A DNA stretch of 64,000 nucleotides, from IMG/VR virus record IMGVR_UViG_3300025715_000361, positions 11,939 to 75,938 of that record. One strand, 5' to 3'. Shown here piece after piece: positions 6,683-46,361 of this stretch. The position numbers and the translations under genes are program-made. The stretch comes from a virus (taxonomy: Duplodnaviria > Caudoviricetes). The notes under the pieces are model-generated. The model saw only the letters and a program-made list of their open reading frames with translations. It was not told where the DNA came from and ran no database searches. The number at the start of each line of letters is the position of its first letter. Position 1 is the first letter of the stretch.

Positions 6683-7264
6683 ATGGCTTACAGAAAATTC
6701 GATGACCCGCCTCTCAGCAGGGACAATGCACCGAGGAAGATTTATCCCGCAATGCCGTGGGAGACGTTCAGACGGGCAATTCAGTCCATCACGAACCGTG
6801 TCGTAAGCGGCACGAATGGCACGATGGGTGGAACTGCCGGAATCGGTGCCGCATGGCTTGGAACCGGAAGCACTGCCGGTCTTAAGCTGAATACGGCACT
6901 CGCCCTGTGCATCAATGGGCAGTATGGAACTGCAAGTGCACAGGACAACCTTTTCCTTCCGACCGGTACGCAGAGCAAATCCACCTACGTGAAGTATCTG
7001 GTGGCGGCGAAGTTTGGAACGAATGCAACGATCTTTGCCGGTAACGAAGGGACGGATTCCACGCATGCTTACCTTCCCGATTGCCCAGATGGATATGTGG
7101 CGGTTGGGTATATGGAGTATGTGACGGGAACTGCCGGTGCGTTCATCCGCTTCGGCGGCGGTACGGCAGGCGGTGCGAACGTTGTTTCCGGCAATGCTGC
7201 GGCAACTTGCGGAACGGTTTCTGGGTACACCCAGCTTCTGCACATGCCGTTTAACGAAGTCTAA
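6683..7264 (+). CDS. Gly/Thr-rich virion protein (decoration/fibre candidate)
   Basis: Follows capsid gene; GGAGG RBS; GTNGT and GTAG motifs. Confidence 0.6.
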   Translation: MAYRKFDDPPLSRDNAPRKIYPAMPWETFRRAIQSITNRVVSGTNGTMGGTAGIGAAWLGTGSTAGLKLNTALALCINGQYGTASAQDNLFLPTGTQSKSTYVKYLVAAKFGTNATIFAGNEGTDSTHAYLPDCPDGYVAVGYMEYVTGTAGAFIRFGGGTAGGANVVSGNAAATCGTVSGYTQLLHMPFNEV

Positions 7265-7270
7265 ACAACT

Positions 7271-7302
7271 GGAGGGGGGAGGAGCGTATTCCTCTCTCCT
7301 CC
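7271..7302 (+). terminator. GC-rich hairpin, possible terminator or processing site
   Basis: GGAGGGGGGAGGA/TCCTCTCTCCTCC 13-bp stem with 2 G-U pairs; no clear U tract. Confidence 0.45.
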
Positions 7303-7324
7303 ATTAACATGAGGGAGAAACTAT

Positions 7325-7681
7325 ATGGGCAGAGTAAAAACAGATCAGGAAAAAAACCCTGATAAATACTTTAACAGTCCGCAGGGTCACATTCGTGACA
7401 GGATCATTATCAGCGATTCGGCAGACATTCCGAGAGAAGGGATTTTCATCTCACTTAACGGTTTTGCTTTCCTTGCGAAACCGGGGGTGGAGATCGATTT
7501 GCCGAGGCCGGTAAGGCTGATGCTGGATACGAGGATCAAGACCGAAGTGGTACAGGTCGATGGCAAGGATCACGTGCGTCACATTAAAAGGTTCGCATAC
7601 CAGATCGTTGCGTTGGATGTTGACAGTTTGGAGAAAGAAGCAGAGGTCGAATCGGCACAGCTTGAGGAGGCTGTTCAATGA
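7325..7681 (+). CDS. Hypothetical head-module protein
   Basis: 118 aa, GAGG RBS, ATGA overlap with next gene. Confidence 0.7.
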   Translation: MGRVKTDQEKNPDKYFNSPQGHIRDRIIISDSADIPREGIFISLNGFAFLAKPGVEIDLPRPVRLMLDTRIKTEVVQVDGKDHVRHIKRFAYQIVALDVDSLEKEAEVESAQLEEAVQ

Positions 7682-8430
7682 TCGGAAGGGAGTTGATTGC
7701 CCATCTCCGTGAAAGTATGCTTGATGATACCCAGTTGCCGTATCTGTGGCCTGATTCAGAGTTGTTGCGGTTTCTGAATTATGCGGAAGTACAGGCTTGC
7801 AGAAGGGCACATTTGATCATCGATGCGGAAACGACAAACGATAACGGGACAGCCGCAACTGCCGGGACGCTTGGACAACAACCATTATGCCGTGTATCCG
7901 TGGTTGCGAATCAAGCTACTTATATTTTAAGCCCGAAGATTTTGCAGATCAAGCGGTGCCAGTTGATGTCCATGCTGTACCCGTTGGAAGGGCCGTTGCA
8001 TTATCCGCATCTTGACGAGCAAATGTCCGGTTGGTTTGGAACGTATGGGTCAAGCGGAACGGTAGGGACTGCGGGTACTGGAGGCGTTCCTTATGCCTTC
8101 ATGAATGAACCGGGGAATACATTGACGTTTGTTTTAGCTCCCGGTGCATCGGATACGGCATTCTTGATCGTGTCGAGATTGCCGTTGACACAGTTTACAT
8201 TGCAAACTTCTCCGGAAGTGCCGGAGAAGTATCATATCGATTTGTGCGATTGGGCGGCACACCTTGCTTTAATGAAACCGGATTCTGATACGATAAACAT
8301 GAATCTGGCGAAGGTGTACGAGGATCGATTCACGGCAAAATTCGGGCCGTTACCGGACGCATACAGCGACAGGATGAGGAAGGTTCTTGTCCAGAAAACG
8401 AGAATGCGTCCAAGGGAGTTCGGTAGTTAG
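7678..8430 (+). CDS. Head-tail adaptor/connector-like protein
   Basis: LWPDSELLRFLNYAEVQACRR N-terminus and PEVPEKYHIDLCDWAAHLA C-terminus resemble podoviral adaptors; contains GTAGT insertions. Confidence 0.6.
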   Translation: MIGRELIAHLRESMLDDTQLPYLWPDSELLRFLNYAEVQACRRAHLIIDAETTNDNGTAATAGTLGQQPLCRVSVVANQATYILSPKILQIKRCQLMSMLYPLEGPLHYPHLDEQMSGWFGTYGSSGTVGTAGTGGVPYAFMNEPGNTLTFVLAPGASDTAFLIVSRLPLTQFTLQTSPEVPEKYHIDLCDWAAHLALMKPDSDTINMNLAKVYEDRFTAKFGPLPDAYSDRMRKVLVQKTRMRPREFGS

Positions 8431-8439
8431 GAGGTTAAA

Positions 8440-8646
8440 ATGGCGATTAAAAAAGGATCAAAGGAAAGTCCGCAGATTTTTGTCGTTACGGACAATCCCA
8501 ACAAGCTTGGAACTACCCCGCTTAAAATCGGAGACATCGCAATCAATACGGGCCTTATGACGCTGTATTTTTGCAAGTCAACGGCAAAGGGAACTCCGGC
8601 TTCTGGGTGCGTTATCGATAGTTGGGGTACTGCGGGTACTGCGTAA
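8440..8646 (+). CDS. Small virion protein ending in GTAGTA
   Basis: 68 aa, AGGAGG RBS. Confidence 0.7.
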   Translation: MAIKKGSKESPQIFVVTDNPNKLGTTPLKIGDIAINTGLMTLYFCKSTAKGTPASGCVIDSWGTAGTA

Positions 8647-8654
8647 TCCATAGG

Positions 8655-8684
8655 CGGGGGGAGCGGAACGACTTGCTCCCCCCG
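8655..8684 (+). other. Perfect 10-bp GC hairpin
   Basis: CGGGGGGAGC / GCTCCCCCCG, intergenic, no U tract. Confidence 0.5.
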
Positions 8685-8701
8685 ATTGAAAGGACGAAGC
8701 C

Positions 8702-9067
8702 ATGGAACGAAGCATCAAGACTATCAGTTTGTTTAAATCCCAGACGGTTGTTGCCGGAAGCTCCGGAATCTCCGATCCAATTGATCTCCGTGATATTTCG
8801 AAGAACGGAGATTTTTCCGTTTATTACAAGATCGACAAAGCCGGTGGAGTGGCAACTTGCGGTTCTGCAAAACTGTCGTTTACCGGGAGTCCTGTATATG
8901 ACGGAACATACATCAGCCCGACAAATGGGACATTCGGGACGGTAGGCGATGGAGGCGGTAATGATATTGTAGAGATAACGCCGCCCGTTATGCCGTTCAT
9001 GAAAATCAACATTGCTATCGGTACCAGTGGCACGGCATTGGTGACTGCTTCTCTCCATGTCAGATAA
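8702..9067 (+). CDS. Virion protein, hypothetical
   Basis: 121 aa, beta-rich, contains GTSGTA. Confidence 0.7.
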   Translation: MERSIKTISLFKSQTVVAGSSGISDPIDLRDISKNGDFSVYYKIDKAGGVATCGSAKLSFTGSPVYDGTYISPTNGTFGTVGDGGGNDIVEITPPVMPFMKINIAIGTSGTALVTASLHVR

Positions 9068-9078
9068 GGGGGTGCGTA

Positions 9079-9456
9079 ATGGCGAATATACGCAAACTGG
9101 TTCTGACAAGGGGCGACTCCAAGACTTACACTCTTACCTTTAAAGATGCGAATGGAAACCCTTATTGCCTGAAGAACTGGGTGGTTTTCTTCACAATGAA
9201 AACCAATTGGGAGCTTCCTGACGCACAAGCCTCACTCCAGAAAACCGTAACAACATTTGCCGACACAACCGGAGGAACAAGCGGGGTGGCGTACATTACG
9301 TTGCTTCCATCGGATACGTCCGCTCTTGATCCCGGCGAATATGATTTTGATATTGCGGTTTGCACGAACCAAAATGCCGTTTACACGGTAATGAAGGGTA
9401 AAGTCGATCTTGAGTATGACGTAACGAATTCAACTGGTACTGCCGGGACTGCGTGA
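9079..9456 (+). CDS. BppU N-terminal-like (Ig-like) tail protein ending in GTAGTA
   Basis: LTRGDSKTYTLTFKDANGNPY...GEYDFDI pattern. Confidence 0.6.
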   Translation: MANIRKLVLTRGDSKTYTLTFKDANGNPYCLKNWVVFFTMKTNWELPDAQASLQKTVTTFADTTGGTSGVAYITLLPSDTSALDPGEYDFDIAVCTNQNAVYTVMKGKVDLEYDVTNSTGTAGTA

Positions 9457-10499
9457 TGGCTGATGAAATAGAAGTCATTTTAGTAACTGCGGAAGCAATT
9501 TCCGTACAAGTTACCGATGAAAAAGAGATAAATTTAAGGACTGAGGGTAGCCTTGTTTCCAACTCTGGTTCACACGGCACTTCAGGGACATCTGGCACTT
9601 CATCTGACGGTTCGCACGGGACTTCCGGCTCTTCTGGGACTTCTGGGACTTCTGGCACAGGGGAGTCCGGCACTTCTGGCACAAGTGGTACCTCTGGCAC
9701 TTCAGGTGATGGCACTTCCGGCTCTTCCGGGACAAGCGGTACTTCAAGTGACGGGACATCAGGCACCTCCGGCACATCTGGAACTTCAGGAACCGGGACG
9801 AGCGGCACTTCAGGGACTTCAGGTACAAGTGCGGAAGGGAGTTCTGGGACTTCCGGCACCTCTGGTACAAGTGGTACTGGTGAATCTGGAAGCAGTGGAA
9901 CATCGGGCACAAGCGGAACGGGGGAAGCTGGTAGCTCCGGCACATCAGGGACAAGCGGCACTTCAGGGGAGGGGAGTAGCGGGACAAGTGGGACATCCGG
10001 CGAGGACGGCTCATCTGGGACTTCAGGGACAAGCGGTAGCTCTGGCACAAGCGGAACCGGTGAGTCTGGGAGTAGCGGTAGCTCTGGGACTTCAGGTTCA
10101 AGTGGTGCGGGATCGTCTGGAACGAGTGGGACATCTGGTTCAACTGGGCTTACGGCAGTTGGGATTACATTTTTTGGTGCGGGAACGTCTATTTCTGCCG
10201 GGGTGCATGGATATGTAGCAATGCCTTTTAGTGCAACAATAAATTCTTGGTATATGGTGGCCGGTTCTGCGGGGACAATGGTTGTCGATGTTTGGAAAAA
10301 AGCCGGAAGCGTACCGACTGTTGCAGATACAATTGCAGGGAGTGAAAAACCAACTTTGACAGGGACTAATGTCGCAAGCGATACGAATTTGACGACATGG
10401 ACAGATGTAGCGGTAACTGCGGGAGACATCATTGGATTTAATGTTGATTCCTGTGTGGGAATAAACATGGCAACGCTTTCAATAGGGCTGAGTTTGTAA
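9456..10499 (+). CDS. Tail fibre-like protein with Gly-Thr-Ser repeat stalk
   Basis: ATG overlaps previous TGA; about 195 aa of (G-T/S-S)n followed by a beta-rich C-terminal domain. Confidence 0.8.
   Translation: MADEIEVILVTAEAISVQVTDEKEINLRTEGSLVSNSGSHGTSGTSGTSSDGSHGTSGSSGTSGTSGTGESGTSGTSGTSGTSGDGTSGSSGTSGTSSDGTSGTSGTSGTSGTGTSGTSGTSGTSAEGSSGTSGTSGTSGTGESGSSGTSGTSGTGEAGSSGTSGTSGTSGEGSSGTSGTSGEDGSSGTSGTSGSSGTSGTGESGSSGSSGTSGSSGAGSSGTSGTSGSTGLTAVGITFFGAGTSISAGVHGYVAMPFSATINSWYMVAGSAGTMVVDVWKKAGSVPTVADTIAGSEKPTLTGTNVASDTNLTTWTDVAVTAGDIIGFNVDSCVGINMATLSIGLSL
9564..10148 (+). repeat. Coding low-complexity GTS/GSS tandem repeat
   Basis: Gly every third residue; codons vary widely, so the repeat is conserved at protein level. 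Confidence 0.95.
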
Positions 10500-10500
10500 A

Positions 10501-11733
10501 ATGGCTTACAGAGGATTCTCATTTAAGCATGGCGGTACAGTTGCCTCAATGTGGCTTTGCATCCAAGGGTTCATGCAGAGCATTGGTTGGGAGCTGTACG
10601 ATGACATTGCATCAAATATAAAAGTTTACAGATCAAACGGGGAATCTGGAAACGAGCATTATGGATACGTTTATATGCAACAGGAAGCCACTTATATTGC
10701 GTATCGCTTTTTCCAGTATTGGGATTTATCCGCTCATGTAGGATACAGAGAACAGGTGATGGGCGGTACCACAAGTCAAAGGTTGGGCACTTTTGATAAT
10801 ACGATGGAATGTTTGCTCTGCGGAGACAAGGACATTGTTGCAATCATATATCCGGCAGAATCGAATACCGCAAATTCGTCCATTTGGTTTGGACATATCC
10901 CGAATAGGTTCGATAGGGTTACGTATGCGGATGGGACAGCAGGGACATCGGCAACGATATCGGTTGCATCAACCTCTGGGCTGTATGAAGGAAAGCAGAT
11001 ACAGATACTTGGTGCCGGGACAGAGGGATGTGAGAACCTTGACATAATAGAGATGGTCGATGCTTCTACCGTAATTGTAAGGAAGATGTCGAAGGACTAT
11101 GGGACAGGTGCGGTTATAGGTGTTCCGGCATCAACATTTGGATGTGCGAACCCATATGTGGCGGTAGAAAGATGGTATCCGACAACACATATATCAGATT
11201 TGGGAACTGCTGTTCAGTCGCAATATTACAGTATTTATCCATTAATGGCTCCTGCTGTGGCAACGGTTCAGCATCATTTTTCGAAAAAAGGGGCACCGGG
11301 GCCGTTATATTTTGTTTCTGATTCAGCCGGTACAACTGGTTGTATGGTTGGGTTTTTGTTAAAATACTTTCTATATGCTCGGAATGTGTCACAAACTTGG
11401 GACGCTTGCATCTATAACACTTCAGGAGAATATGGCACTTCCGCAACCGCATCCACATCAAGCGCAAACACATTGATTGAAACAGGCAGAACGTGGTCTG
11501 CGGATCAACACCTAAATAGAATGGTGCTTATTACAGCGGGAACAAACATTGGTCAATGTGCAAAAATAACGGGAAACGATGCAACGTCACTGTCAATAGA
11601 TGGAACATGGGGGACAACATTTGGAACATCAAGGTACCAAATCTGCGATCAATTGTTTAGAGCACAAAGATATTCTTTGTATAATTATTTGCAGTTGCGA
11701 GTAACTGACACTACTGCACCGGTTCTTACATAG
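10501..11733 (+). CDS. Tail fibre/receptor-binding candidate, paralog 1
   Basis: Shares N-terminus (IGWE.YD, VYRSNGESG.E.YGY, YQYW) and C-terminal DTT.P with next gene. Confidence 0.6.
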   Translation: MAYRGFSFKHGGTVASMWLCIQGFMQSIGWELYDDIASNIKVYRSNGESGNEHYGYVYMQQEATYIAYRFFQYWDLSAHVGYREQVMGGTTSQRLGTFDNTMECLLCGDKDIVAIIYPAESNTANSSIWFGHIPNRFDRVTYADGTAGTSATISVASTSGLYEGKQIQILGAGTEGCENLDIIEMVDASTVIVRKMSKDYGTGAVIGVPASTFGCANPYVAVERWYPTTHISDLGTAVQSQYYSIYPLMAPAVATVQHHFSKKGAPGPLYFVSDSAGTTGCMVGFLLKYFLYARNVSQTWDACIYNTSGEYGTSATASTSSANTLIETGRTWSADQHLNRMVLITAGTNIGQCAKITGNDATSLSIDGTWGTTFGTSRYQICDQLFRAQRYSLYNYLQLRVTDTTAPVLT

Positions 11734-11741
11734 GGGGAGAT

Positions 11742-13010
11742 ATGTCGTATAAAGCATATGAATTCAGGGCCGCAGACAGAGCGGCTTTCTGGGCCGCAAT
11801 TCAGCCTTTCATGGGTGAGATTGGGTGGGAGGAATACGATGTAATTGATGCTGATACGATAGTATATCGCTCAAATGGCGAGTCTGGGAAAGAGCCATAT
11901 GGTTACATTCATATCGATGCAGGGACATCCACATATATAGAATTTACGGCGTATCAGTATTGGAATTTGGCAACTCATACGGGAACAAGAAAGATGTGGG
12001 CATATAACACCCAAACGAATTCGAGAATTATTGGGTTTGGAGATTCCTATCCCGGGTTCATCCTTGCCGGAGACAAGGATTTGGTGTTTATGCTTTCAAA
12101 TGCGGAATCCTATTCACAACAAATTACAAGTTATGGTGTTCTTTTTGGGCATTTGCCAATACGGTTTGACACAAGATTGACAAACGCCGAAGGCACGGCC
12201 GGAACAGCGGGAACGATAACAGTCGAGTCGTCTGTTGGGTTTGGAGTTGGAAAATACGTGCAGATAGTCGGAGGAACAACCGGATGTGATTTACTGCAAA
12301 TTACTGAAATTGTCGATACAAATACGATAAAAGTTGCGTCTTTAGCAAGAAACTACGGTACGGGGGCGGTGCTTGGTTCTCCCGGTTCGACATTTGGGAT
12401 TATTGGTATTGGTCCCACAGTAGCTCAACGGTGGTTTCAAACATCATTTTATGGAGACTCAGGCACAACTGTCGGAAGCAGTTATTTAGCAGTGGGAAAT
12501 ATTGCAAACCCAACCGTGTATACAAACATGATGCACTTCACAAAGAAGTTCCATTTTGCTCCATTTGTGGTTGCAACTGATTCTGCTTCAAGCCCCGGAA
12601 TAATACTTGGATGTTATGGGACAAACTTTATGTATGGGAATTACAATTATGGGTATGAATTTTATGTAGAAAATAATGATGGGAGTGCTCCTGAAGTGGG
12701 AAGGACAACTGAGGGTGGCACAAACACTTTAAAGGATTCAAGGAAGTCGTGGACAGTAAACGAACATGTAGGTAAATTTGTTACAATTATGTCGGGTACG
12801 TACGCATACAAAGGCGGGACATATGGGATGTCAAAGAAAATTGCATCAAACACGGCAGATACTCTAACATTAGTTTCTGATTGGAATGTAGTTCCGGATG
12901 GAACAACAATTTATGCGATACATGATATTTTGTGGAGGGCTACGCCAACATATACGATTGGCCAAAACTATTCTTTAATTAGGATAACTGACACGACTGT
13001 TCCATCATAG
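11742..13010 (+). CDS. Tail fibre/receptor-binding candidate, paralog 2
   Basis: Paralog of 10501-11733; contains GTAGTAGT. Confidence 0.6.
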   Translation: MSYKAYEFRAADRAAFWAAIQPFMGEIGWEEYDVIDADTIVYRSNGESGKEPYGYIHIDAGTSTYIEFTAYQYWNLATHTGTRKMWAYNTQTNSRIIGFGDSYPGFILAGDKDLVFMLSNAESYSQQITSYGVLFGHLPIRFDTRLTNAEGTAGTAGTITVESSVGFGVGKYVQIVGGTTGCDLLQITEIVDTNTIKVASLARNYGTGAVLGSPGSTFGIIGIGPTVAQRWFQTSFYGDSGTTVGSSYLAVGNIANPTVYTNMMHFTKKFHFAPFVVATDSASSPGIILGCYGTNFMYGNYNYGYEFYVENNDGSAPEVGRTTEGGTNTLKDSRKSWTVNEHVGKFVTIMSGTYAYKGGTYGMSKKIASNTADTLTLVSDWNVVPDGTTIYAIHDILWRATPTYTIGQNYSLIRITDTTVPS

Positions 13011-13018
13011 AGGGAATA

Positions 13019-13267
13019 ATGGCGTTTAACTATTACGATGTGGAAGGGATAGAGAGTGGATTGTGTTCAACTGCGTTTGCGGAAGTGTTGCGTTTGGTGG
13101 CTTATAAAACTTTTATTGGATTCGCTACACCGGCTATACCGCCAACAGTGACAAGGATATCGCAAGCGTTGAATTGGAATTTGGGTGGAGGTGCGACAAC
13201 GGCAGGGACTTCTGGCACAGGTGGCACAACCATCGTTGTCGGTGGATCATATACATGGATAGGGTGA
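13019..13267 (+). CDS. Small Gly/Thr-rich virion protein
   Basis: 82 aa; TTAGTSGTGGTT. Confidence 0.6.
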   Translation: MAFNYYDVEGIESGLCSTAFAEVLRLVAYKTFIGFATPAIPPTVTRISQALNWNLGGGATTAGTSGTGGTTIVVGGSYTWIG

Positions 13268-13271
13268 TGAA

Positions 13272-13688
13272 ATGTTTGTTCAGATAGCACAGGCCGCACA
13301 GCAAGCGGCACAGGAAATAAAAGAACCCATTATAACGTGGAACCTTTTTGTAACTGGTTTTGGGATGCCACTCGGATTGTATATTTTGGGCCATTACATC
13401 AAACTGAAAATTGAAGCAAAATCCAAGGTGGATTCAGAGCTTGAAATTGAAAAAAAGAAGTCCTTGGAAACGTGGCAAGCCAACATGGAAAAGACGATCC
13501 TTCAATGGCAAGAGGGCGCAAAAGAAAGAACTGCGGGAATATGTAAAAAGCTTGATGAAATAAAAGATGAGGTGCACGCAAAGCAGGGAATAAGGGCTTG
13601 TGAAAAGAAACATGATGACATCGACAAAAAACACGATACTCTTGAAAAGAAGTTAAACCATATCGAAGAAAAGGTGTTTTACGCATGA
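13272..13688 (+). CDS. Holin-like membrane protein
   Basis: One N-terminal hydrophobic helix plus coiled coil; ATGA overlap with endolysin. Confidence 0.5.
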   Translation: MFVQIAQAAQQAAQEIKEPIITWNLFVTGFGMPLGLYILGHYIKLKIEAKSKVDSELEIEKKKSLETWQANMEKTILQWQEGAKERTAGICKKLDEIKDEVHAKQGIRACEKKHDDIDKKHDTLEKKLNHIEEKVFYA

Positions 13689-14053
13689 CGGAATTGCTTG
13701 AAAAACGACTGAGATTCACTCGCCATTTAACGGATTTAATAGTACACTTCAACCAGAAACCGGGGGTTGATGTGGCTTACGGGAGAGATTTTGATGAACA
13801 ATACGAACGAACAAAAGACGGGAAGCCCCTCCGTCACATGCGGGGCAGCCTTCATTATTTGGGCCTTGCCAATGATGTCGCTTTATATTTGCACGGAAAA
13901 TACCAAGAGAATACTGAGGCTTATGCTGAAATGGGAGCGTACTGGAAAAGCCTTGATGTCGATAACCGCTGGGGAGGAGAATTTCGGGACAAAAAAGGAA
14001 ACCCTGCTCCAGACGGATGCCACTTCAGTATCGAGTATCAAGGACGCAAATGA
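13685..14053 (+). CDS. Endolysin, peptidase M15 family
   Basis: SLHYLGLANDV, RWGGEF and DGCHFS zinc-peptidase motifs. Confidence 0.85.
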   Translation: MTELLEKRLRFTRHLTDLIVHFNQKPGVDVAYGRDFDEQYERTKDGKPLRHMRGSLHYLGLANDVALYLHGKYQENTEAYAEMGAYWKSLDVDNRWGGEFRDKKGNPAPDGCHFSIEYQGRK

Positions 14054-14646: not shown

Positions 14647-14667
14647 AATAACCTCCTTTATGGAGTG

Positions 14668-14696
14668 AATATAATCATTTAATTTGAAGTTGTCAA
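14668..14696 (-). promoter_or_regulatory. Sigma70-type promoter for the HNH gene
   Basis: TTGACA-N17-TATATT on the minus strand. Confidence 0.7.
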
Positions 14697-14744
14697 TATG
14701 AAAGTCGATGGCAATCATTTTTCAATCACTTATGGAGGGAAATC

Positions 14745-14897: not shown

Positions 14898-15181
14898 AGA
14901 TTCTGGTTTGCGTTCTTTTTGTGGTGTTCTGCGTTGCGGGGTGCTGTATCGACAAATTTGGAAGAGTGTGGGTAGGGAAATGCTATGAGGGAAAGGAGAT
15001 TGACATGAACCCATCGGAAATTAAAAATGACAAAGATATGATTAAATATCTTCAGCAACAAAACGATATTTTAACAAAGGACAAGGAAAAGCTTACGGCA
15101 CTATTGGAAAAAAGAGACGTAGGGGAAGGACACCTTTTAGGAAAGAAGAAATGGGTTGAGCCCGTATGGTGGCAATTATGA
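14894..15181 (+). CDS. Lipoprotein, spanin-like candidate
   Basis: Signal peptide with VAG|C lipobox; coiled coil; lysis region. Confidence 0.55.
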   Translation: MKILVCVLFVVFCVAGCCIDKFGRVWVGKCYEGKEIDMNPSEIKNDKDMIKYLQQQNDILTKDKEKLTALLEKRDVGEGHLLGKKKWVEPVWWQL

Positions 15182-15302
15182 AATGGTACGATGTTTTGTT
15201 GGTTTTGGCAATGCTTTGCATGGTGTTGGGATTGGTGATGGTTGGATTGGGGTTGTTCTCAAACCACACCTATCATCCATTTTATTAGGAGGATATGCGG
15301 AC

Positions 15303-15875
15303 ATGATGAAACGACTACTGACCATCGGATGCGTAACGCTGCTCCTTGCGACGCTGATTGGGTGCGGTCCCTCGGCGTTGCAGATTCAGGCCGAGATTGC
15401 GTACTACGAAGCGATCGCCTCTATTCAGAAGAACCAGGCCGCTAAACCATTGGTAAGGATTGTGCCAAGTGATCCAACCAAGGCAATGATGATGGACAAC
15501 GTAGGGGCAATCGAAGTCTATCAGCAGGTGGCGGACAAGAGCATCGTCCAGTACCAGCAACGGGACTATTCCGAACCCGCCTGGCGTTTTCTCACGGCGG
15601 CAACGGGCATCATTGCACCGTGGGTAGGGGTAGGAGTGCTGGCCCATGAGTTCGGGCAGATGAATAACGGCACGACCTACAACTATCACAACGAGGTAGG
15701 GGCAGGGGCAACGGGGCAGTTCCGGGTAGTCGGCAATACAAGCGCAACAGGAGGGCCAGCGACGGGGATCAGCGACGCGACAAGCGTCCCCACAGTTGTC
15801 AACCCGGTCATCATGGAACCGAGCGTGCATATTGTGCCGCAGCCGGAGCCTATCATAGTACAACCAACCAAATAA
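15303..15875 (+). CDS. Lipoprotein
   Basis: AGGAGG RBS; MMKRLLTIGCVTLLLATLIG|C lipobox; Pro/Val-rich tail (ORF track start at 15156 is probably too early). Confidence 0.7.
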   Translation: MMKRLLTIGCVTLLLATLIGCGPSALQIQAEIAYYEAIASIQKNQAAKPLVRIVPSDPTKAMMMDNVGAIEVYQQVADKSIVQYQQRDYSEPAWRFLTAATGIIAPWVGVGVLAHEFGQMNNGTTYNYHNEVGAGATGQFRVVGNTSATGGPATGISDATSVPTVVNPVIMEPSVHIVPQPEPIIVQPTK

Positions 15876-15885
15876 GGAGGATAAC

Positions 15886-16074
15886 ATGGTAGCGTATATC
15901 ATCGACAGACTTAAGGAAGCATCGACTTGGCGTGGCATCATCGCATTTCTAACGGCGGCGGGCTTGTCCATCAGCCCCGAGTTGGGAGAGAAGATTATCG
16001 CCGTCGGCCTTGCCATCATCGGCGTCATCGGGATGGTGTTCAAGGACGGCAAGGGTGGAGCGGAGGTGAAGTGA
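15886..16074 (+). CDS. Small two-TM holin-like protein
   Basis: LKEASTWRGI...two hydrophobic helices; AAGGAGG RBS. Confidence 0.7.
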   Translation: MVAYIIDRLKEASTWRGIIAFLTAAGLSISPELGEKIIAVGLAIIGVIGMVFKDGKGGAEVK

Positions 16075-16220
16075 TGGCAACATTCTTCAAACTGCTGTTT
16101 AGTCTGCTTGGGTCGAACAGTGTTTACAAGCTCATTGACAAGGCGTTGGACAACTACCACGCTCTCACACCAGAGCAAATCGCGGCTCTGAAAAAGAGGT
16201 TCGATGACATCCCCGAGTGA
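16074..16220 (+). CDS. Small protein (48 aa)
   Basis: TGATG overlap; NYHALTPEQIAALKKRF resembles next ORF. Confidence 0.55.
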   Translation: MATFFKLLFSLLGSNSVYKLIDKALDNYHALTPEQIAALKKRFDDIPE

Positions 16221-16230
16221 TTATAAGACC

Positions 16231-16377
16231 ATGAACCCATTGATTGCAAGGATTCTGCTGACAGTTGCGATTAAGATGAAGCATTACGAGAACCTTACAG
16301 AAGATCAGAAAAAGGCTTTTCAGGAAGCCGTAAACAAACTGCCCGTAAGCGAACTGCAGACGGGAATGGAGCCATAG
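16231..16377 (+). CDS. Small protein (48 aa), possible paralog of previous ORF
   Basis: HYENLTEDQKKAFQEAV. Confidence 0.5.
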   Translation: MNPLIARILLTVAIKMKHYENLTEDQKKAFQEAVNKLPVSELQTGMEP

Positions 16378-16386
16378 GAGGATGGT

Positions 16387-16692
16387 ATGAAAAAGATTAT
16401 CGTAGTGATTTTGGTATTGTTGGCAAGTACAGTTTTTGCCGCTGATCCATACATTGTAACAGACCCTCAAGAGGGAGTTATCGGATATACTCTTGGCGGG
16501 TTGACGGATCAGACGGTTGCGGCACAGCAAGATGGATCGTTGCTTTATAACGTGCGGAGTGCTCCGATAGGAACAACCGAAGTAACAATTGCGGCTTGTA
16601 ATTTATGGGGGGATTGCGGTGCCTCCGTCCCTTTCGTTTTAAAACGGATCGTACCGGGGCCGCCTGTTGGGACACGATTCGAGGTCAGATAG
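16387..16692 (+). CDS. Secreted small protein
   Basis: MKKIIVVILVLLASTVFA signal peptide; beta-rich mature part. Confidence 0.7.
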   Translation: MKKIIVVILVLLASTVFAADPYIVTDPQEGVIGYTLGGLTDQTVAAQQDGSLLYNVRSAPIGTTEVTIAACNLWGDCGASVPFVLKRIVPGPPVGTRFEVR

Positions 16693-16693
16693 T

Positions 16694-17161
16694 ATGCGTA
16701 GAGTATTTCACATACTTGCCATTGTGATGATAGCGGCACAGGCATACGCATTGGATTGCAGTCACAAGCCCCCATGCCCTCCCGGCACAACGGCACAAGA
16801 GTCGGTTTCTTGCGATGCCTGTTGTCCTACTGGTTCATTCATTACCAGTGCAGAAGATAAGTTTTGTTGCCCAGAGGGTTATATCCCATCTCCAGATAAC
16901 ACAAACTGCATTCCAAAAGGGGCGTTCCTCAAGTCTGATGGAACGTGTTATGTCATGAATGAGACAGATGCCTGTTGTCTGGCGGGATGGCACACCGTAA
17001 ATCAGTATGAATGCTGTCCAGATGGTTTCACACTTGCTACTGATAATGAATTTTGCTGTACGCAAAGAGCGGACGGGAAATGTTGTGCTCCGAATTTCAG
17101 GTTGAATGTACTGACTGGACGTTGCATTCCCCCGAAGCCAACGGGGGTGATGTTAAGGTGA
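16694..17161 (+). CDS. Secreted cysteine-rich protein (18 Cys)
   Basis: Signal peptide (AYA); repeated CC motifs, three of them CCPxG. Confidence 0.7.
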   Translation: MRRVFHILAIVMIAAQAYALDCSHKPPCPPGTTAQESVSCDACCPTGSFITSAEDKFCCPEGYIPSPDNTNCIPKGAFLKSDGTCYVMNETDACCLAGWHTVNQYECCPDGFTLATDNEFCCTQRADGKCCAPNFRLNVLTGRCIPPKPTGVMLR

Positions 17162-17391
17162 AGTCGTTAGAGGAAAGAAGGAAATCGGATAGGGAAAGAC
17201 AGGCAAAGTGCCGAAACAAGAAACTGGAGAAAGAGTTTTACGCAGAATTTTCCAAACTCAAAACCATGAAGGAGGGGGCAGAATGGATGAGGATGAGGAG
17301 AATAAACCAGTGGAAACCGCCGTTAAAAGATATGGAAGCAATATGGAGGGAATTGCATGGTGACTGTGAAAGTCGGCAAGGCTGTGAGTGA
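17158..17391 (+). CDS. Basic hypothetical protein
   Basis: GTGA overlap with previous gene; 77 aa. Confidence 0.55.
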   Translation: MKSLEERRKSDRERQAKCRNKKLEKEFYAEFSKLKTMKEGAEWMRMRRINQWKPPLKDMEAIWRELHGDCESRQGCE

Positions 17392-17926
17392 AGACATTAT
17401 CACGATAAAGGAAGTCCACAACATTCCACAGGAGAAGTTACCGGCAATATGTTTTTGCAACGGGTTTACTTCTCTTTTTGGGATGCTGATTTCGTTGCGG
17501 ACAAACGAGTATTATAACCATTTCATGATGCTTACAAGCCCTCATGAATTCGCAAGCCAATGGTGGTGGTACAAGAAATTCCCGGTGGAGCATTTTTCTA
17601 AACACGCCATTAAAATCGTTTGGAACGAAAATTGGACGGATGTCCAGAGGAAGGTGATACTCCAATCGGTTGAAAACCGCATGAAAGAAGGGCCGTGGAA
17701 AACGAGGTATGACATCCTTGGGGTTATCGGACAGGCTATCGGGGTTCCAAGTCTCCAGAACAAGAAACTGGATTACTGCTCCGAAACAATCAAGCATATT
17801 GCTTTGGTTGATCCTGAATGTGCGAAGTTTTTGGATAGTGAACCGCACCCGAGGCCGGAAGAAATTAACGATTGGGTAAAAACGCAATCAGGATACAGAA
17901 CCTTGGCAAGAGTGGTACCAGAATAG
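17357..17926 (+). CDS. Permuted papain-like amidase (YiiX/YebB-like NlpC/P60)
   Basis: His (YNHF) precedes RYDILGVIG...LDYCSE catalytic Cys motif. Confidence 0.65.
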   Translation: MVTVKVGKAVSEDIITIKEVHNIPQEKLPAICFCNGFTSLFGMLISLRTNEYYNHFMMLTSPHEFASQWWWYKKFPVEHFSKHAIKIVWNENWTDVQRKVILQSVENRMKEGPWKTRYDILGVIGQAIGVPSLQNKKLDYCSETIKHIALVDPECAKFLDSEPHPRPEEINDWVKTQSGYRTLARVVPE

Positions 17927-17931
17927 GTTAT

Positions 17932-18031
17932 GCTTCGGGGGATAGGCTTATAACCGAAAGCCGGACTCCCTCACCGGCCCTCCCCCGAAGCCACTTACAA
18001 GAGGGATACCCTACGAGGGATAGGAGGATTC
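17932..18031 (+). promoter_or_regulatory. Structured RNA leader of the glycosyltransferase gene
   Basis: Perfect 11-bp stem GCTTCGGGGGA/TCCCCCGAAGC enclosing inner stems; loop TCCCTC complementary to GAGGGA copies beside the RBS. Confidence 0.45.
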
Positions 18032-20914
18032 ATGTTTAAAGAGATTAAGGTAGTAGCGACATTTAACGAAAGAACTGGGTACGGGATTCACGGTTCGAGG
18101 TTTTTCCCGAAACTGTTGGATCGTCTTGGAAAGTTTAAGGACGGAGAGGGTGTTGCTACCGTATCCCTCCTTGATGTGGTATCTGCCTCCCATGTCACGG
18201 CAGTTCACCCGTCTCCGTCCATCCTTTACAACGTCTGGGAGTCAACGGAATATCCAATGGCTTTCATGGAGAAGCTGAAAAATTACGATCAGCTTTGGGT
18301 TCCTTCTGAATGGCAGAGGTCTTGTTCAATTGCACAGGGAATACCGGAAGAGTTTGTAAAGGTAGTGCCGGAAGGCGTTGATCCAGATGTTTACAAGCCA
18401 GTAGATGTTGAAATCGGGGAAATATTTACATTTGTTCATGTGGGGCAATGGCAACCGAGAAAATCCACTTTGGAAGTCATACAGTCTTTTTTGAAAGCGT
18501 TTCCAGACAACGACAGCGTGCGGTTGGAATTGTCTGTGGATACGTTGTTTCCATCGGATCAGTACAAATCCACTGAAGAAAGGTTGGAAGCCTGTGGCAT
18601 CAAAGACAAAAGAATCATCGTTGTGCATTTCGAGGAAAGAGAGGACTATATCAGGAGGTTACAGAGGGCGGGGTGCTTTGTTAGCTGTTCACGTTCCGAG
18701 GGATGGGGTTTGCCGATCATCGAGGCAATGGCGTGTGGAGTACCGACAATCGTGGCAGATTTTGGAGGTTCAACCGAGTACGCTTTTGATGCGATTAAAG
18801 TACGTGTGCCTAAACTGATTAAGCCCTATGGGATTTACGGAAACTGGGATGTGCCGGGGTACTGGGGAGAGCCTGATTTCGATCATCTGGTGGAGCAAAT
18901 GAGGGCTGTTTACAGCGATTATTACGGTTACAAGAAAAGAGCCCTTGAATCATCTGAACGGATAAGGCGGGACTTCTCATGGGACAAGGCCGCAGACAAG
19001 GCTATGGTGATTCTTGAAAGTCTGTCACAGCGGTACAAGCCACAGGAATACAAGATCGAAAACAAGAAAGAAGGAGTTTTCGTGGTGGATTGCTGGCCCA
19101 GTTCAAAAGAAAAGATGCAAACGCTTGTTGAAACGGTTGAGCAAATCCATAGTTACGGGTTTCCGGTGATTATAACTTCTCATTATGCCCTGCCGGATGA
19201 GGTGATTAAAAAGGCAGAATACTACATTTATGACCGTGAAGATATCATGTCTGGTGATGACAAACCCTATTATTGGAGAATCAGACCGGACGGAACAAGG
19301 GAAACAAAACGAGCCAATGTCGAATATCAGGGTGTCGCCGCAATAAACAACTTCCGGAATGCCATCGATTTCTGCCGAGGAAGGTTCGAGTGGGTATACC
19401 AGATGGGGGCAGACATTGAGGTCGATATGGAAACGTGGTTATCCCTTGTTTCGTCCTCTGATAAAGACTTGGTTTGCATCCCGTATGAAGGAGTTAAAAA
19501 CGGCGTTGGCGGCGGTATCATGGCCGGTAAAACGGAACTATATGACAAGCTGATACCAAGGCTGAAATCATGGAAGCAGTATGCAGACCTGTACCCGAAT
19601 GAGAAGTTTGTTGCGGAACGATGGCTTTACCGTTACTTCACCGATACAATGCCGGATTTCGATAACATTGTCGATTGGGTGAATATTGAGACAACAAACA
19701 GGTGGGATAACGTGGACAGAACGGTTTGGAAAGACGATGACTTTATCTGCCATTTCGTAGAAGGGCCGTTCCTTCAGATTGTCGGGGGAAGTGTAAACGA
19801 ATACGATGTGGAGTGGTCAACTCCAACCAATCCGCTTTTGTACACGTTGAAGCAGAAAGCGGGAATGTGGAGCCGTCCGAATATAAAATATTATCAGCCG
19901 TGGACTGTCAAGGCGAAGCTGAACGGGGAAGTCAAATTTGAGCATTCCTTTGATCCCAGAGGGAAAAGGGTTCTTGTGTGCATGGGGTCAAAGGCTTTGG
20001 GTGACACTTTGGCGTGGATGCCCTATGTAGAAGAATTCCGTAAAAAGTGGGATTGCCACTTGATCTGTTCGAGTTGGTGGATTGACATTCTGGATTACCC
20101 TGAAATTGAATACGTGAAGCCGGGTTCTGGGGTGGAAAACATTTACGCAAGTTTCAATGTGGGGTGTTTTGACAATCAGTTGGAATTGAATGTCGAAAAC
20201 TGGAGAACAACGATACTCCAGAAAGTGTCTGCGGACATCCTTGGGATCGATTACACGCCGATAAAGGCAAAGCTGAAATTTACTCCGCACCGTGAAGGGA
20301 ACGGGAAACCCAAAAAGCCATACGTTTGCTTTTCGGAATACTCGACCATGCAGAACAAATTCTGGAACCGTGATGGGGCGTGGCAGAATATTATCGATTA
20401 CCTTGTTGATCTTGGATACGATTGCATTTCTATAAGCCCTGAAGGTACTTTGCTTAAAAACGTGGTTCAACATAACGGACAGCCAATTGAGCATACAATT
20501 GCAGATATTGCCGGATGTGAATTTTATCTTGGCTTGAACCATGGCCCCGCATGGATTGCTTATTCGCTTGGTGTCCCTGCGGTGATGATTACGGGAGTGA
20601 GTGAACCGTGGAACGATTTCCCGAATCCGTACAGGGTTTCGAGCGATGTGTGCAGACCGGGGTGTTTCAACGATCCGTCCCTTCCAATCAATCGGGGTTG
20701 GGAATGGTGTCCACGAAACAAGAATTACGAGTGTACGAGAGCGATAACAGAAGGAATGGTAATTGAAGCAATAAATCGGTTGAGAAAGGATTACGGGTAT
20801 GCCTGCGAAATCCAAAAAACAGCGGAGATTGATGGCGATGGCAGAACACCATCCGGAAATGATCTCGGAGAAGAACAGTGGGGTGCTGTCAATGTCAAAA
20901 GACCAGTTGCATGA
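18032..20914 (+). CDS. Multi-domain glycosyltransferase: GT4 + unknown domain + AAH/TibC-like O-heptosyltransferase
   Basis: VWESTEYP, EGWGLPIIEAMACG (GT4 E-x7-E); ALGDTLAWMPYVEEF; C-terminal CRPGCFND...WCPR...ECTRAIT four-Cys motif. Confidence 0.85.
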   Translation: MFKEIKVVATFNERTGYGIHGSRFFPKLLDRLGKFKDGEGVATVSLLDVVSASHVTAVHPSPSILYNVWESTEYPMAFMEKLKNYDQLWVPSEWQRSCSIAQGIPEEFVKVVPEGVDPDVYKPVDVEIGEIFTFVHVGQWQPRKSTLEVIQSFLKAFPDNDSVRLELSVDTLFPSDQYKSTEERLEACGIKDKRIIVVHFEEREDYIRRLQRAGCFVSCSRSEGWGLPIIEAMACGVPTIVADFGGSTEYAFDAIKVRVPKLIKPYGIYGNWDVPGYWGEPDFDHLVEQMRAVYSDYYGYKKRALESSERIRRDFSWDKAADKAMVILESLSQRYKPQEYKIENKKEGVFVVDCWPSSKEKMQTLVETVEQIHSYGFPVIITSHYALPDEVIKKAEYYIYDREDIMSGDDKPYYWRIRPDGTRETKRANVEYQGVAAINNFRNAIDFCRGRFEWVYQMGADIEVDMETWLSLVSSSDKDLVCIPYEGVKNGVGGGIMAGKTELYDKLIPRLKSWKQYADLYPNEKFVAERWLYRYFTDTMPDFDNIVDWVNIETTNRWDNVDRTVWKDDDFICHFVEGPFLQIVGGSVNEYDVEWSTPTNPLLYTLKQKAGMWSRPNIKYYQPWTVKAKLNGEVKFEHSFDPRGKRVLVCMGSKALGDTLAWMPYVEEFRKKWDCHLICSSWWIDILDYPEIEYVKPGSGVENIYASFNVGCFDNQLELNVENWRTTILQKVSADILGIDYTPIKAKLKFTPHREGNGKPKKPYVCFSEYSTMQNKFWNRDGAWQNIIDYLVDLGYDCISISPEGTLLKNVVQHNGQPIEHTIADIAGCEFYLGLNHGPAWIAYSLGVPAVMITGVSEPWNDFPNPYRVSSDVCRPGCFNDPSLPINRGWEWCPRNKNYECTRAITEGMVIEAINRLRKDYGYACEIQKTAEIDGDGRTPSGNDLGEEQWGAVNVKRPVA

Positions 20915-20990
20915 CTTTGCGGCAACATCGGAAAAAAATCTGCCTAACCGCAAGCGGAAGGGATACGGGTTGGGGAAGAAGAGAAAATAA
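20799..20990 (+). CDS. Small basic protein, DUF3008-like
   Basis: MPAKSKKQRRLM...MSKDQLHDFAATSEKNLP; overlaps 3' end of GT gene. Confidence 0.65.
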   Translation: MPAKSKKQRRLMAMAEHHPEMISEKNSGVLSMSKDQLHDFAATSEKNLPNRKRKGYGLGKKRK

Positions 20991-21003
20991 GGAGGATTGA
21001 AAA

Positions 21004-21174
21004 ATGGCAAAGGGATTTGGGCTTGGAAAACCGGAAGTGGAAACGGAAACCATGGGGCCGTTGACGAAGCTTTATTTGCAGGCAAAAGTCGCAAAAGAGG
21101 TTGAAGAGAGGAAAAAAGCAGAACCACCGCCTGCTCCTCCTCCTCCTGAAGAAAAGAAGGTAAAGCCTTATTAA
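21004..21174 (+). CDS. Small Pro-rich protein (56 aa, not in ORF track)
   Basis: AAGGAGG RBS; MAKGFGLGK...PPPAPPPPEEKK. Confidence 0.6.
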   Translation: MAKGFGLGKPEVETETMGPLTKLYLQAKVAKEVEERKKAEPPPAPPPPEEKKVKPY

Positions 21175-21186
21175 TAGGTAGGGAAA

Positions 21187-22116
21187 ATGCAAGGGCAATT
21201 CGAGCAAAGTTTGGATCGGTTTTCCGGTCTTGACAATGTACGGGACAAGCACAGGCTGATTCCGCAACCGATTTACCATAAAGGGATATATCTTGTTCCG
21301 TTATGGCAAGCGGACAATGTTGAGATCGATGATACTCACCAGTTGAAATCGAGGTCTGGATATACAAGGGTTGCGTCTGGATCACAGATACACTCCATGT
21401 GGTCGAACAATGAGGTCTGCTTATATGTGGATGGGACTTCGTTGATGCAACTGAATTCAAGCTATTCGTCAATTACTTTGAGAACCGGCCTGACACCGAA
21501 TGCGAGAATGTCATATGCGGACTTCAACGACAAAATCTACTACTCGAATGAATTCGAGATCGGGTTTGTAAGGAATTCAACGAACAACGGTGTTGTTGAT
21601 CCGAGTATGGCGTTCAAGAAAGACATCCCTGCCGGTCAGTTGCTTGCTGTTTACAATTCAAGTTTGTTCGTGGCAAGGGACGATACGTTGTATATCTCTG
21701 ATCCGCTGTGCGATTATTACGATATCAGGAAGGGATACCGCAGATTCAATAACCGGATAACGATGGTGAGGCCGGTTAGCGATGGAATCTACATTTCCGA
21801 TGATCGCATATGGTTCATGTCCGGCCCGTCAAACGAAGATTTTGAATTGTCGGAAGCGTATCCTTCTCAAGCATTGCCGAATACTGATGTGAATGTTGCC
21901 GGACAGTATGTCAGCGAAGAGGGAATGCAGGGCGTGGTTGCCATATGGACATCAAGGGATGGCATCTGCTTGGGTGATAGCAAGGGGAAGGTCATAAGCC
22001 TTACTGAATCAAGGTATGATTATGGCACAGCCGGTACTGCGGGAATAAGGAGGAGAGGGGCGGCGTATATCAGGGAGATAAACAATCAGAGACACTACAT
22101 CAATTCAATGTATTAG
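21187..22116 (+). CDS. Tail nozzle/head-closure-like virion protein
   Basis: Beta-rich 309 aa; ADNVEID...LKSRSGY start typical of podoviral stabilisation proteins; contains GTAGTAG. Confidence 0.5.
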   Translation: MQGQFEQSLDRFSGLDNVRDKHRLIPQPIYHKGIYLVPLWQADNVEIDDTHQLKSRSGYTRVASGSQIHSMWSNNEVCLYVDGTSLMQLNSSYSSITLRTGLTPNARMSYADFNDKIYYSNEFEIGFVRNSTNNGVVDPSMAFKKDIPAGQLLAVYNSSLFVARDDTLYISDPLCDYYDIRKGYRRFNNRITMVRPVSDGIYISDDRIWFMSGPSNEDFELSEAYPSQALPNTDVNVAGQYVSEEGMQGVVAIWTSRDGICLGDSKGKVISLTESRYDYGTAGTAGIRRRGAAYIREINNQRHYINSMY

Positions 22117-22128
22117 GAGGACGGGAAA

Positions 22129-22581
22129 ATGGCATTCAGACTTTCGACAGGGTTAAGGACGGGGCTTCTTGGGACTTGGGGTTTTAAGGAGCTTATGGAC
22201 AACGGGTGGCTGGATATTTACACCGGAGCACAGCCGACACATCCGGATTACGTGGAAACCGGCACGAAACTGGTACGGATCAGTTCCACGTGCGGAGCCG
22301 GAGTTGATGACGGTTGCAAGTTTGGGACAGCCGGTACGGGGGTTCTTCCAATCGGCGGGGTTGCGTGGCAGGGTGTTGTGCTTGCGGACGGAGTTGCCGG
22401 ATGGGCAAGATACTATGCTTCTTCAGGAACGGGCGGCCAAACCGGAACAAGCGGTACGGCGATCAGATTTGACTTGTCTGTTGGAGTATCCGGTGCTGAC
22501 CTGAACCTTTCACATACGAGCCTGACAACGGGTGCTACGCTCACAATTACTGCGGCAAACGTGACTCAGCCGGAAGAATAA
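22129..22581 (+). CDS. Virion structural protein, paralog 1
   Basis: MAFRLSTGLR, IYTGAQP, AGWARY, RFDLSVG. Confidence 0.7.
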   Translation: MAFRLSTGLRTGLLGTWGFKELMDNGWLDIYTGAQPTHPDYVETGTKLVRISSTCGAGVDDGCKFGTAGTGVLPIGGVAWQGVVLADGVAGWARYYASSGTGGQTGTSGTAIRFDLSVGVSGADLNLSHTSLTTGATLTITAANVTQPEE

Positions 22582-22593
22582 CGGAGGTGCGTC

Positions 22594-23037
22594 ATGGCTT
22601 TTAGAATGAGCACAAGCCTGAAGGACTATCTTTGCACGGCAGGGATAGTTACAAATTTTGCCGGTACAACGGGAACTGGTGGAACTGCGGTACTGTATAT
22701 CTATACGAACACGCAACCGGCAAGTGCGGACGAAGGTGATTGCGGAACCCTTTCCGGTACGTTCGGGACGATACTTGCGGTGATTGAAGGAATAGGGTGG
22801 GGCACTGCTCTAACCGGAACGTGTGCTTTTGCAACTGCGGGAGGGTATTCGTCAACGTCGAGAACTGCCGGGACAGCGGGATGGGCAAGGCTTGAGTGCA
22901 TAAATGACAATGGTACTTGCCGTATCGATGGAAATGTAGGGACTGGGTTAGGAAATGTCTGGACAATCAATCAGGCGATTTTTGCAACAAACGGGGAAAC
23001 AGTCACTTTGACATCCGCAGATGTTTACATGGGGTAA
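22594..23037 (+). CDS. Virion structural protein, paralog 2
   Basis: MAFRMSTSLK, IYTNTQP, AGWARL, RIDGNVG. Confidence 0.7.
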   Translation: MAFRMSTSLKDYLCTAGIVTNFAGTTGTGGTAVLYIYTNTQPASADEGDCGTLSGTFGTILAVIEGIGWGTALTGTCAFATAGGYSSTSRTAGTAGWARLECINDNGTCRIDGNVGTGLGNVWTINQAIFATNGETVTLTSADVYMG

Positions 23038-41019: not shown

Positions 41020-41033
41020 TGTGTCAATCCAAT

Positions 41034-43565: not shown

Positions 43566-43678
43566 TTATCCCTCCGAATATGGTGAATACAATGGCGAAC
43601 ACAACATAAAAAATAATTATTCCGATAAATGCCAGTAAGTAAACTGGTATAAAAAGTATCTGCAACAACACAGATGGG

Positions 43679-46358: not shown

Positions 46359-46361
46359 TGT

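Follow-up and report, generated by a model that had tools for sequence, protein, structure and literature searches.

Bacterial autotransporter heptosyltransferases (BAHT; TIGR04414; PDB 4RAP/4RB4), which in E. coli form the pairs TibC-TibA and Aah-AIDA-I, are cytoplasmic and carry out multiple O-glycosylation of Gly/Ser/Thr-rich, β-rich surface proteins encoded nearby (PMC4358343, PMC3835316). The residue modified is a Ser/Thr where the loop begins in a strand-loop-strand element, and what is recognized is a structural motif that has no sequence consensus (PMC3835316). In TibC and Aah (AAH) the acceptor is Ser, not Thr (PMC4358343). Use of ADP-heptose as donor and assembly into a dodecameric ring are further marks of the family. 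In TibC, Asp-110 is the catalytic base, Thr-226, Lys-230, Arg-286 and Trp-305 bind the sugar, and Cys-339, Cys-342, Cys-358 and Cys-370 form an iron finger (PMC4358343). Among phages, glycosyltransferases encoded by mycobacteriophages are reported to glycosylate the C-termini of virion subunits (Freeman et al. 2023, summarized in PMC12619734). Here we describe a virus genome in which a TibC-like enzyme, encoded at 18032-20914, occurs together with a short peptide motif, GT[AS]GT, that is written into many structural proteins. The DNA analyzed, called the window below, is 64,000 nucleotides long and comprises bases 11939-75938 of an uncultured virus record of 75,938 bp. We propose that GT[AS]GT, each copy of which we call a tag, is a miniature copy of the repeat of a collagen-like fibre and serves as acceptor for the enzyme at 18032-20914; judged from sequence comparisons, we give this reading a probability of about one half.

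Distribution, conservation and predicted position of the tag

Leaving the collagen-like gene aside, GT[AS]GT is present in 11 copies in nine proteins (at 8065, 8626, 9020, 9436, 10933, 12192, 12201, 13205, 22024, 22324 and 22444). Composition-preserving shuffling of each protein, repeated 2000 times, gave an expectation of 0.14 ± 0.37 copies and a maximum of 2. The same element emerged when no motif was assumed beforehand: no other 5-mer is shared by as many proteins as GTAGT, which occurs in 7, versus 2 for the next unrelated 5-mers. The collagen-like gene at 9453-10499 holds 26 further, overlapping copies. An initial annotation of this DNA had assigned the motif to 10 structural proteins. 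Its motif coordinates are correct throughout, and the number of carriers is right when the collagen-like gene is counted in; this gene does hold many copies, but its start is the GTG at 9453 in the list of open reading frames (ORFs) rather than 9456. The variants GTNGT, GTTGT and TAGTAG that had been listed for the genes at 6683 and 22594 were recovered as well, and a looser form of the tag can be written as G-T-[A/S/C]-G-[T/S]. The carriers and variant carriers are as follows.

6683..7264, plus strand: 193-aa protein rich in Gly, Thr and Ala, encoded after the capsid gene; variant tags GTNGT and three GTAG cores
7678..8430, plus strand: head-to-tail adaptor of the SU10 adaptor family (PF24175, 56 bits), tag 8065-8079 in a Gly/Thr-rich insertion
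8440..8646, plus strand: 68-aa protein with C-terminus GTAGTA-stop, tag 8626-8643
8702..9067, plus strand: 121-aa protein, GTSGT at 9020-9034 with alternating hydrophobic residues on either side
9079..9456, plus strand: 125-aa LtfC-like β-sandwich protein (phrog_1084, E 1.4e-14; PF23926, weak), ending in GTAGTA-stop, tag 9436-9453
9453..10499, plus strand: collagen-like, proline-free fibre protein (Pfam Collagen, 42.4 bits; phrog_35197 and phrog_10330, virion structural protein)
10501..11733, plus strand: 410-aa structural-arm protein, paralog of 11742, tag 10933-10947
11742..13010, plus strand: 422-aa paralog of 10501, with GTAGTAGT (12192-12215) in what is predicted to be a hairpin loop
13019..13267, plus strand: 82-aa protein, GTSGTGGT at 13205-13228
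21187..22116, plus strand: head-closure (Hc3-like) connector (phrog_8040, E 4e-32), GTAGTAG at 22024-22044
22129..22581, plus strand: 150-aa virion structural protein (phrog_3758, E 1e-20), tags 22324-22338 and 22444-22458
22594-23037, plus strand: paralog of 22129 with the variant tags GTTGT and TAGTAG

A search of PDB sequences with the adaptor gave no match. The fibre protein consists of (Gly-Thr/Ser-Ser)n repeats followed by a globular C-terminal domain, and is likely the primary acceptor. It has a long uninterrupted Gly-X-Y run; the short tags, at two triplets, are too short to count as collagen-like sequences.

Two trivial origins of the shared tag were ruled out. The codons differ at every copy, which rejects a repeat at the DNA level and agrees with the earlier view that the peptide is what recurs. 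Paralogy does not account for the sharing either, since 10501 and 11742 (38% identity) are the only detectable paralogs among the carriers. GT[AS]GT is absent from the minus-strand arm, from the 3209-aa protein and from the 11.9 kb of the genome beyond the window, which bears out its reported absence from the early arm and the giant protein; an additional match at 61089-61460 (minus strand) was discarded, being located in an out-of-frame ORF that overlaps the real gene 60928-61629 (minus strand).

Several tags are strongly conserved among homologs. Of 120 database homologs (64-98% identity) of the LtfC-like protein 9079, 115 have GTAGT, and 119 have GT[AS]G[TS], among their final eight residues. 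Conservation of the tag columns is 0.9-0.99 compared with a protein mean of 0.81, and the residues immediately preceding the tag are variable. Only homologs with 64-98% identity were listed in the large protein search with 9079, and a profile scan of viral contigs for distant homologs in enzyme-less phages gave only clade members with 60-70% identity. In the 10501/11742 family, GTAGT (G151-T155 in 11742) is invariant at 35-46% identity. The tag of 13019 is retained in all three homologs, the C-terminus of 8440 homologs is GTAGT in five of eight and GTCGT in the other three, and adaptor homologs within the clade hold the looser G-T-[A/C]-G-[S/T]. The 9079 family also contains a second strongly conserved Gly/Thr/Ser piece, T-[S/G]-G-T-S-G, at residues ~64-69.

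The initial annotation expected the motifs in surface loops and at termini, and the predicted positions agree with this. Two tags, in 8440 and 9079, are bare C-terminal tails. AlphaFold2 models were made for two carriers, 11742 and 22129. In the 22129 model, which has a mean predicted local distance difference test (pLDDT) score of 82.5, one tag is placed in the loop that precedes strand 72-75, and the other falls within residues 97-112, a disordered loop joining two strands. The 22129 fold matches a tail-fibre entry of phage 7-7-1 (9rkv_A, E 1.8e-6), in agreement with a role in the virion. The 11742 model, which at a mean pLDDT of 53 can be read for local secondary structure only, predicts a strand at 146-150, a loop with the tag at 151-156 and a second strand at 157-161. 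The adaptor of relative G012 (G012:C1 ~15034-16167) has an insertion of ~110 aa exactly at the tag-bearing loop, in which more pieces of the types SGTAGT and NGTAGN occur; the position of this insertion suggests that the adaptor loop is exposed and tolerates insertions.

The BAHT enzyme and its distribution among phages

The enzyme gene lies within the late structural block and is flanked by lysis and connector genes.

18032..20914, plus strand: 960-aa fusion enzyme with a GT4 domain (~aa 80-330), a middle region lacking a family match and a BAHT domain (aa 599-920)

The GT4 domain was recognized by PF00534 (Glycos_transf_1; 58.1 bits, cut-off 26.4) and PF13692 (42.7 bits, cut-off 27). The BAHT domain aligns with TibC (PDB 4RAP) at E 1.6e-34 over aa 636-920, and what had been cited as an analogy with AAH and TibC is thus real homology. 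Asp658, in the sequence ALGDTLAW, corresponds to the catalytic Asp-110 of TibC and is Asp in 25 of 26 phage homologs. Matches to the sugar-binding residues are Thr772 (T226), Lys776 (K230) and Trp841 (W305), and the iron-finger cysteines are present as Cys874, Cys878, Cys893 and Cys901. The Asp, Lys, Trp, Thr/Ser and four Cys are retained in 22-26 of the 26 phage homologs. Departures from TibC are found in the first Cys pair, which is spaced CX3C instead of CX2C; at the stereoselectivity position (Pro-300 in TibC, Ser-294 in AAH), which is Asn here and Ser, Gly or Asn in the phage homologs; and at Arg-286, which is replaced by Thr822. By its sequence, the 18032 product is a true TibC homolog and a relative of protein O-glycosyltransferases, with predicted active-site residues that are intact except for Arg-286.

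Near-complete close relatives all carry the enzyme. For comparison we used six relatives without a BAHT domain, comprising four cultured phages and two fragmentary genomes (covering 18 kb downstream of the capsid gene), ~240 kb in total. GT[AS]GT does not occur in these six, as against 10 in this genome and 8 in the BAHT-bearing relative G012. The adaptor is the only carrier that has good homologs on both sides of this split. In BAHT-bearing phages it contains two Gly/Thr/Ala-rich insertions, one of which has the tag, and the adaptors of the BAHT-less G016 and Rollin lack both. Co-occurrence of motif and transferase, one of the initial expectations, is thus observed, as a contrast between one clade and its outgroups.

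Fusions of GT4 and BAHT domains recur in distant phages, often with methyltransferase domains. One relative has a GT4-BAHT enzyme (L004:1175-5311) that is as long as 1379 aa because its GT4 part is split by a LAGLIDADG intein (Pfam matches Intein_splicing and LAGLIDADG_3). Among cultured phages in the GenBank collection a BAHT-like domain was found only in Microcystis phage Mel-JY01 (PP395634.1 7435-8454), with 35% identity and annotated as 'methyltransferase FkbM'. Scanning bacterial genomes for the domain gave two loci. One of these, L405 (JAHEYD010000005.1, 68,332 bp), is a complete phage of the clade binned into an archaeal metagenome-assembled genome ('Nitrosotalea sp.'), and its BAHT domain is 59% identical to that of the 18032 enzyme. 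Since the contig is as large as a whole phage genome of the clade, it is probably a mis-binned phage and not evidence of an archaeal host.

In IMG/VR the scan gave 59 BAHT-domain loci, and 27 of these have a collagen-like ORF within 10 kb of the BAHT domain, with mostly GTS and GSS triplets. The association was also examined in reverse, starting from repeats in viral contigs of at least 15 kb. TIGR04414 scored above its cut-off in 13 of 46 contigs with a (Gly-Thr-x)4 DNA pattern and in 1 of 48 with (Gly-Pro-x)4. As (GTT)n too is matched by the DNA pattern (G-T-WSN)n, the contigs were sorted anew by translation; the BAHT domain was then present in 12 of 40 true (GTS)n contigs, compared with 1 of the 48 contigs of the (GPx)n type (p 4e-4). 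The sole positive (GPx)n control contig has (GTS)n repeats too, and one complete negative in the test set is (GTT)n. From the fibre counts at BAHT loci and the reverse contig test we conclude that the pairing of BAHT enzymes with Gly-Thr/Ser-Ser repeats is general.

Genome setting and competing explanations

The plus-strand arm of the window (26-39446) encodes terminase, portal, capsid, adaptor, small structural proteins, a lysis block, the transferase, connector and fibre-like proteins and a giant protein of 3209 aa. The minus-strand arm, from 39443 on, contains replication genes and a set of genes for sugar tailoring.

5587-6576, plus strand: capsid gene, in the structural arm
39443..48402, minus strand: sugar-tailoring set, from NCBIfam and Pfam matches, with a conjectured tie to the tag

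Among cultured phages, the nearest relatives are podophages that infect Pseudoalteromonas, Pseudomonas, Xanthomonas and Stenotrophomonas, which have a similar giant protein and 37-45% capsid identity; megablast of the region against GenBank phages gave no match. The tailoring set consists of two B12-binding-type radical SAM proteins, one SPASM/twitch-type radical SAM protein, an SDR epimerase/dehydratase, a CmcI-like sugar O-methyltransferase and a second GT4, and by these family assignments it could supply or decorate a glycan.

Other genes of the window have features of their own. The terminase large subunit (26-1831, plus strand) has a weak Intein_splicing match and is 601 aa long versus ~480-500 aa in relatives. 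Downstream of the tag carriers, at 23284-25767 (plus strand), two adjacent proteins have concanavalin A-like/Laminin_G_3 lectin domains and are possible receptor-binding or glycan-binding parts. An AAA/SMC-like ATPase is encoded at 48847-50097 (minus strand), and its best family matches are the defence ATPases MADS3, AbiEii-type AAA_21 and retron Eco8 effector. The segment 60000-64000 has a GC content of 0.56-0.58 versus 0.39-0.52 elsewhere, and its genes gave no Pfam match; one of them, the 233-aa gene at 60928-61629 (minus strand), contains FMDADTLV, which resembles the DxD motif of glycosyltransferases.

From the observations on motif, enzyme and repeats we infer the following course of events. 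Late in infection, the BAHT domain would add the first sugar, presumably heptose from the host ADP-heptose pool, to a Thr or Ser of the tag wherever this is displayed, either in a strand-loop-strand element or as a free C-terminal tail. Extending or decorating this sugar would then fall to the fused GT4 domain, perhaps along with the tailoring enzymes encoded in the other arm. The long (Gly-Thr/Ser-Ser)n fibre would be the main and probably ancestral substrate. Within the podophage clade the tag would have spread to the adaptor, a connector, a tail-fibre-like protein and several of the small proteins encoded between the adaptor and the lysis block, so that several virion parts would carry glycan; a coat over the whole particle, for shielding or adhesion, is a conjecture of the initial annotation. 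An acceptor Thr/Ser at the X position would fit fibre and tags alike, since the fibre repeats have Ser or Thr at the same X position. A more complete scheme is put forward tentatively, with the odds somewhat against it: GTAGT(A) would be a portable O-glycosylation tag, effective both within a loop and at a free C-terminus, and a soluble, cytoplasmic BAHT-GT4 enzyme would read it and add a tailored heptose-based glycan to many virion parts in a podophage clade of Gram-negative hosts.

A number of observations weigh against an acceptor function of the tag. Seven of the tags are GTAGT and contain no Ser, whereas the acceptor of TibC is Ser, and a changed acceptor preference must therefore be assumed. 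Known BAHT enzymes have no sequence consensus, and one that required a strict sequon would be out of the ordinary among them. The enzyme itself scores 183 bits (E 7e-54) with TIGR04414, under the curated equivalog cut-off of 200, and the position of the replaced Arg-286 is variable among the phage homologs. The low confidence of the 11742 model counts here as well. Conservation is uneven: the tag of 8702 is weakly conserved (8 of 37 homologs, the others having different Gly/Thr/Ser variants), tags in the 22129 family are partially and weakly conserved, and that of 21187 is a private insertion, with the motif missing or gapped in all 14 homologs below 95% identity. By these alignments, about half of the tag sites look strongly constrained and the others appear to turn over. 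Comparing phages that have the enzyme with phages that lack it amounts to a single phylogenetic split, one clade versus outgroups; as all GT-bearing relatives form this one clade, co-occurrence provides one evolutionary contrast, and for most of the genes with a tag the outgroups have no homolog whatever. In the distant BAHT phages (34-41% identity, contigs of 20-250 kb) no dispersed tags were found in non-collagen ORFs within 10 kb of the BAHT domain, and the recurrent partner of the enzyme is a long Gly-Thr/Ser-Ser collagen-like fibre. The initial proposal of a portable acceptor tag for the 18032 glycosyltransferase is partly supported, by TibC homology, predicted location in loops and at termini, and absence from six transferase-less relatives, and is weakened by strict conservation of only about half of the sites, restriction to one clade and the missing Ser in GTAGT.

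The alternative that survives best, unlikely as we consider it, is that the tags are structural or assembly elements, either Gly-X-Y pieces of two triplets or turns made of Gly and Thr, by which the fibre or a shared partner is docked onto several virion proteins, and that the enzyme glycosylates the long fibre only. A tag is exactly two collagen triplets, and that of the adaptor prolongs a run of four to six Gly-X-Y triplets. The C-terminal GTAGTA of 9079 would be an example of such docking, as this protein resembles a fibre-attachment (LtfC-like) domain and its gene immediately precedes that of the fibre. Pairing of the enzyme with long fibres only, as seen in the distant phages, points the same way, and so does the preference of TibC for Ser, which is found in the fibre and missing from GTAGT (PMC4358343). 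Docking would however leave the invariant Thr at both X positions unexplained, and the tags are found in loops of monomer size belonging to unrelated folds, as well as in a connector insertion that is private. Two triplets are moreover too few for a stable collagen triple helix. Because fibre, enzyme and tags travel together, comparative data cannot separate docking from glycosylation; docking equally fits the absence of tags from relatives without BAHT and fibre.

A quite improbable alternative is that the transferase has a target outside the virion, such as host envelope proteins, lipopolysaccharide or DNA, for instance in superinfection exclusion, and that its vicinity to the tags reflects coincidental clade ancestry. 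Phage glycosyltransferases are usually ascribed to modification of DNA or O-antigen, according to statements in two papers (PMC7029224, PMC10202952), the contrast between phages with and without the enzyme is one phylogenetic split, and the sugar-tailoring genes are in the other, early-type arm. Against this, the enzyme belongs to a family of protein O-glycosyltransferases and has a predicted active site that appears intact, its gene is inside the late structural block, and in unrelated phages BAHT domains are strongly associated with (GTS)n fibre genes.

It is very improbable that the tag is read by another phage enzyme, either one of the three radical SAM proteins or a protease. Radical SAM enzymes are known to modify short peptide motifs in other systems, one of the three has a SPASM/twitch domain resembling those of peptide maturases, and radical SAM/SPASM and B12-radical SAM genes are indeed present at 39443-48402; but there they adjoin the SDR, sugar O-methyltransferase homolog and GT4 genes, a sugar-tailoring context, and no protease was identified in the block. 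The motif excess could finally lack a specific function and simply reflect the low-complexity loops, rich in Gly, Thr and Ala, of fibre-type proteins, as the carriers are rich in Gly and Thr and several sites drift among Gly/Thr/Ser variants, but this is largely excluded by the shuffles described above, by the near-invariance of the C-terminal tag over 120 homologs and by the zero copies in relatives of similar composition.

Comparison with described glycosylation systems

To our knowledge, mycobacteriophages are the only phages reported to glycosylate their virions with enzymes of their own, and in them this affects antibody recognition. If the tag of the present phage is an acceptor for the BAHT enzyme, there would be a second, unrelated system in Gram-negative-type lineages, virion-wide glycosylation would occur outside actinophages, and sugar-coated phage particles would be widespread, with relevance for phage-host recognition, environmental stability and the visibility of therapeutic phages to the immune system. 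The BAHT family, known from the maturation of adhesins, would then gain a role in virus assembly, and one of its members would be Thr-directed and have a true sequence sequon. A short tag read by a single soluble enzyme would be a tool for site-specific protein glycosylation in E. coli. Neither BAHT enzymes in phages nor glycosylation of collagen-like phage fibres turned up in literature searches.

The phage enzyme and the TibC-TibA and Aah-AIDA-I systems share a homologous catalytic domain, including the Asp base, the Thr/Lys/Trp residues and the four-Cys finger. In the phage enzyme, unlike TibC and Aah, this domain is joined to a GT4 domain and to a middle region of 270 aa. Its candidate acceptors are a collagen-like fibre and short virion tags instead of the passenger of an autotransporter, and no autotransporter is encoded in the phage genome. 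No consensus exists for Aah, whereas the tag is defined by its sequence, and GTAGT offers only Thr whereas TibC modifies Ser.

The mycobacteriophage systems are similar in that two proteins of the present phage have a conserved C-terminal tag as a candidate glycosylation site. They differ in hosts and in enzyme family, which is BAHT plus GT4 here, and in the proteins concerned: there these are capsid and tail tube, whereas the tags described here are also internal and occur on many minor proteins.

In BclA-type spore glycoproteins of Bacillus, Thr-containing Gly-X-Y repeats (GPT) of a surface fibre are O-glycosylated by dedicated transferases. The repeats of the phage are in contrast proline-free (GTS/GSS/GTA), the transferases are unrelated, and BclA belongs to a bacterial spore surface and not to a virus. 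What is already known from these systems is thus the enzyme family and the idea of virion glycosylation; what is new is the type of the proposed substrate, with the occurrence of a fibre repeat unit as isolated tags of 5-6 residues in at least nine non-collagen virion proteins of a podophage clade, and possibly a true sequence tag.

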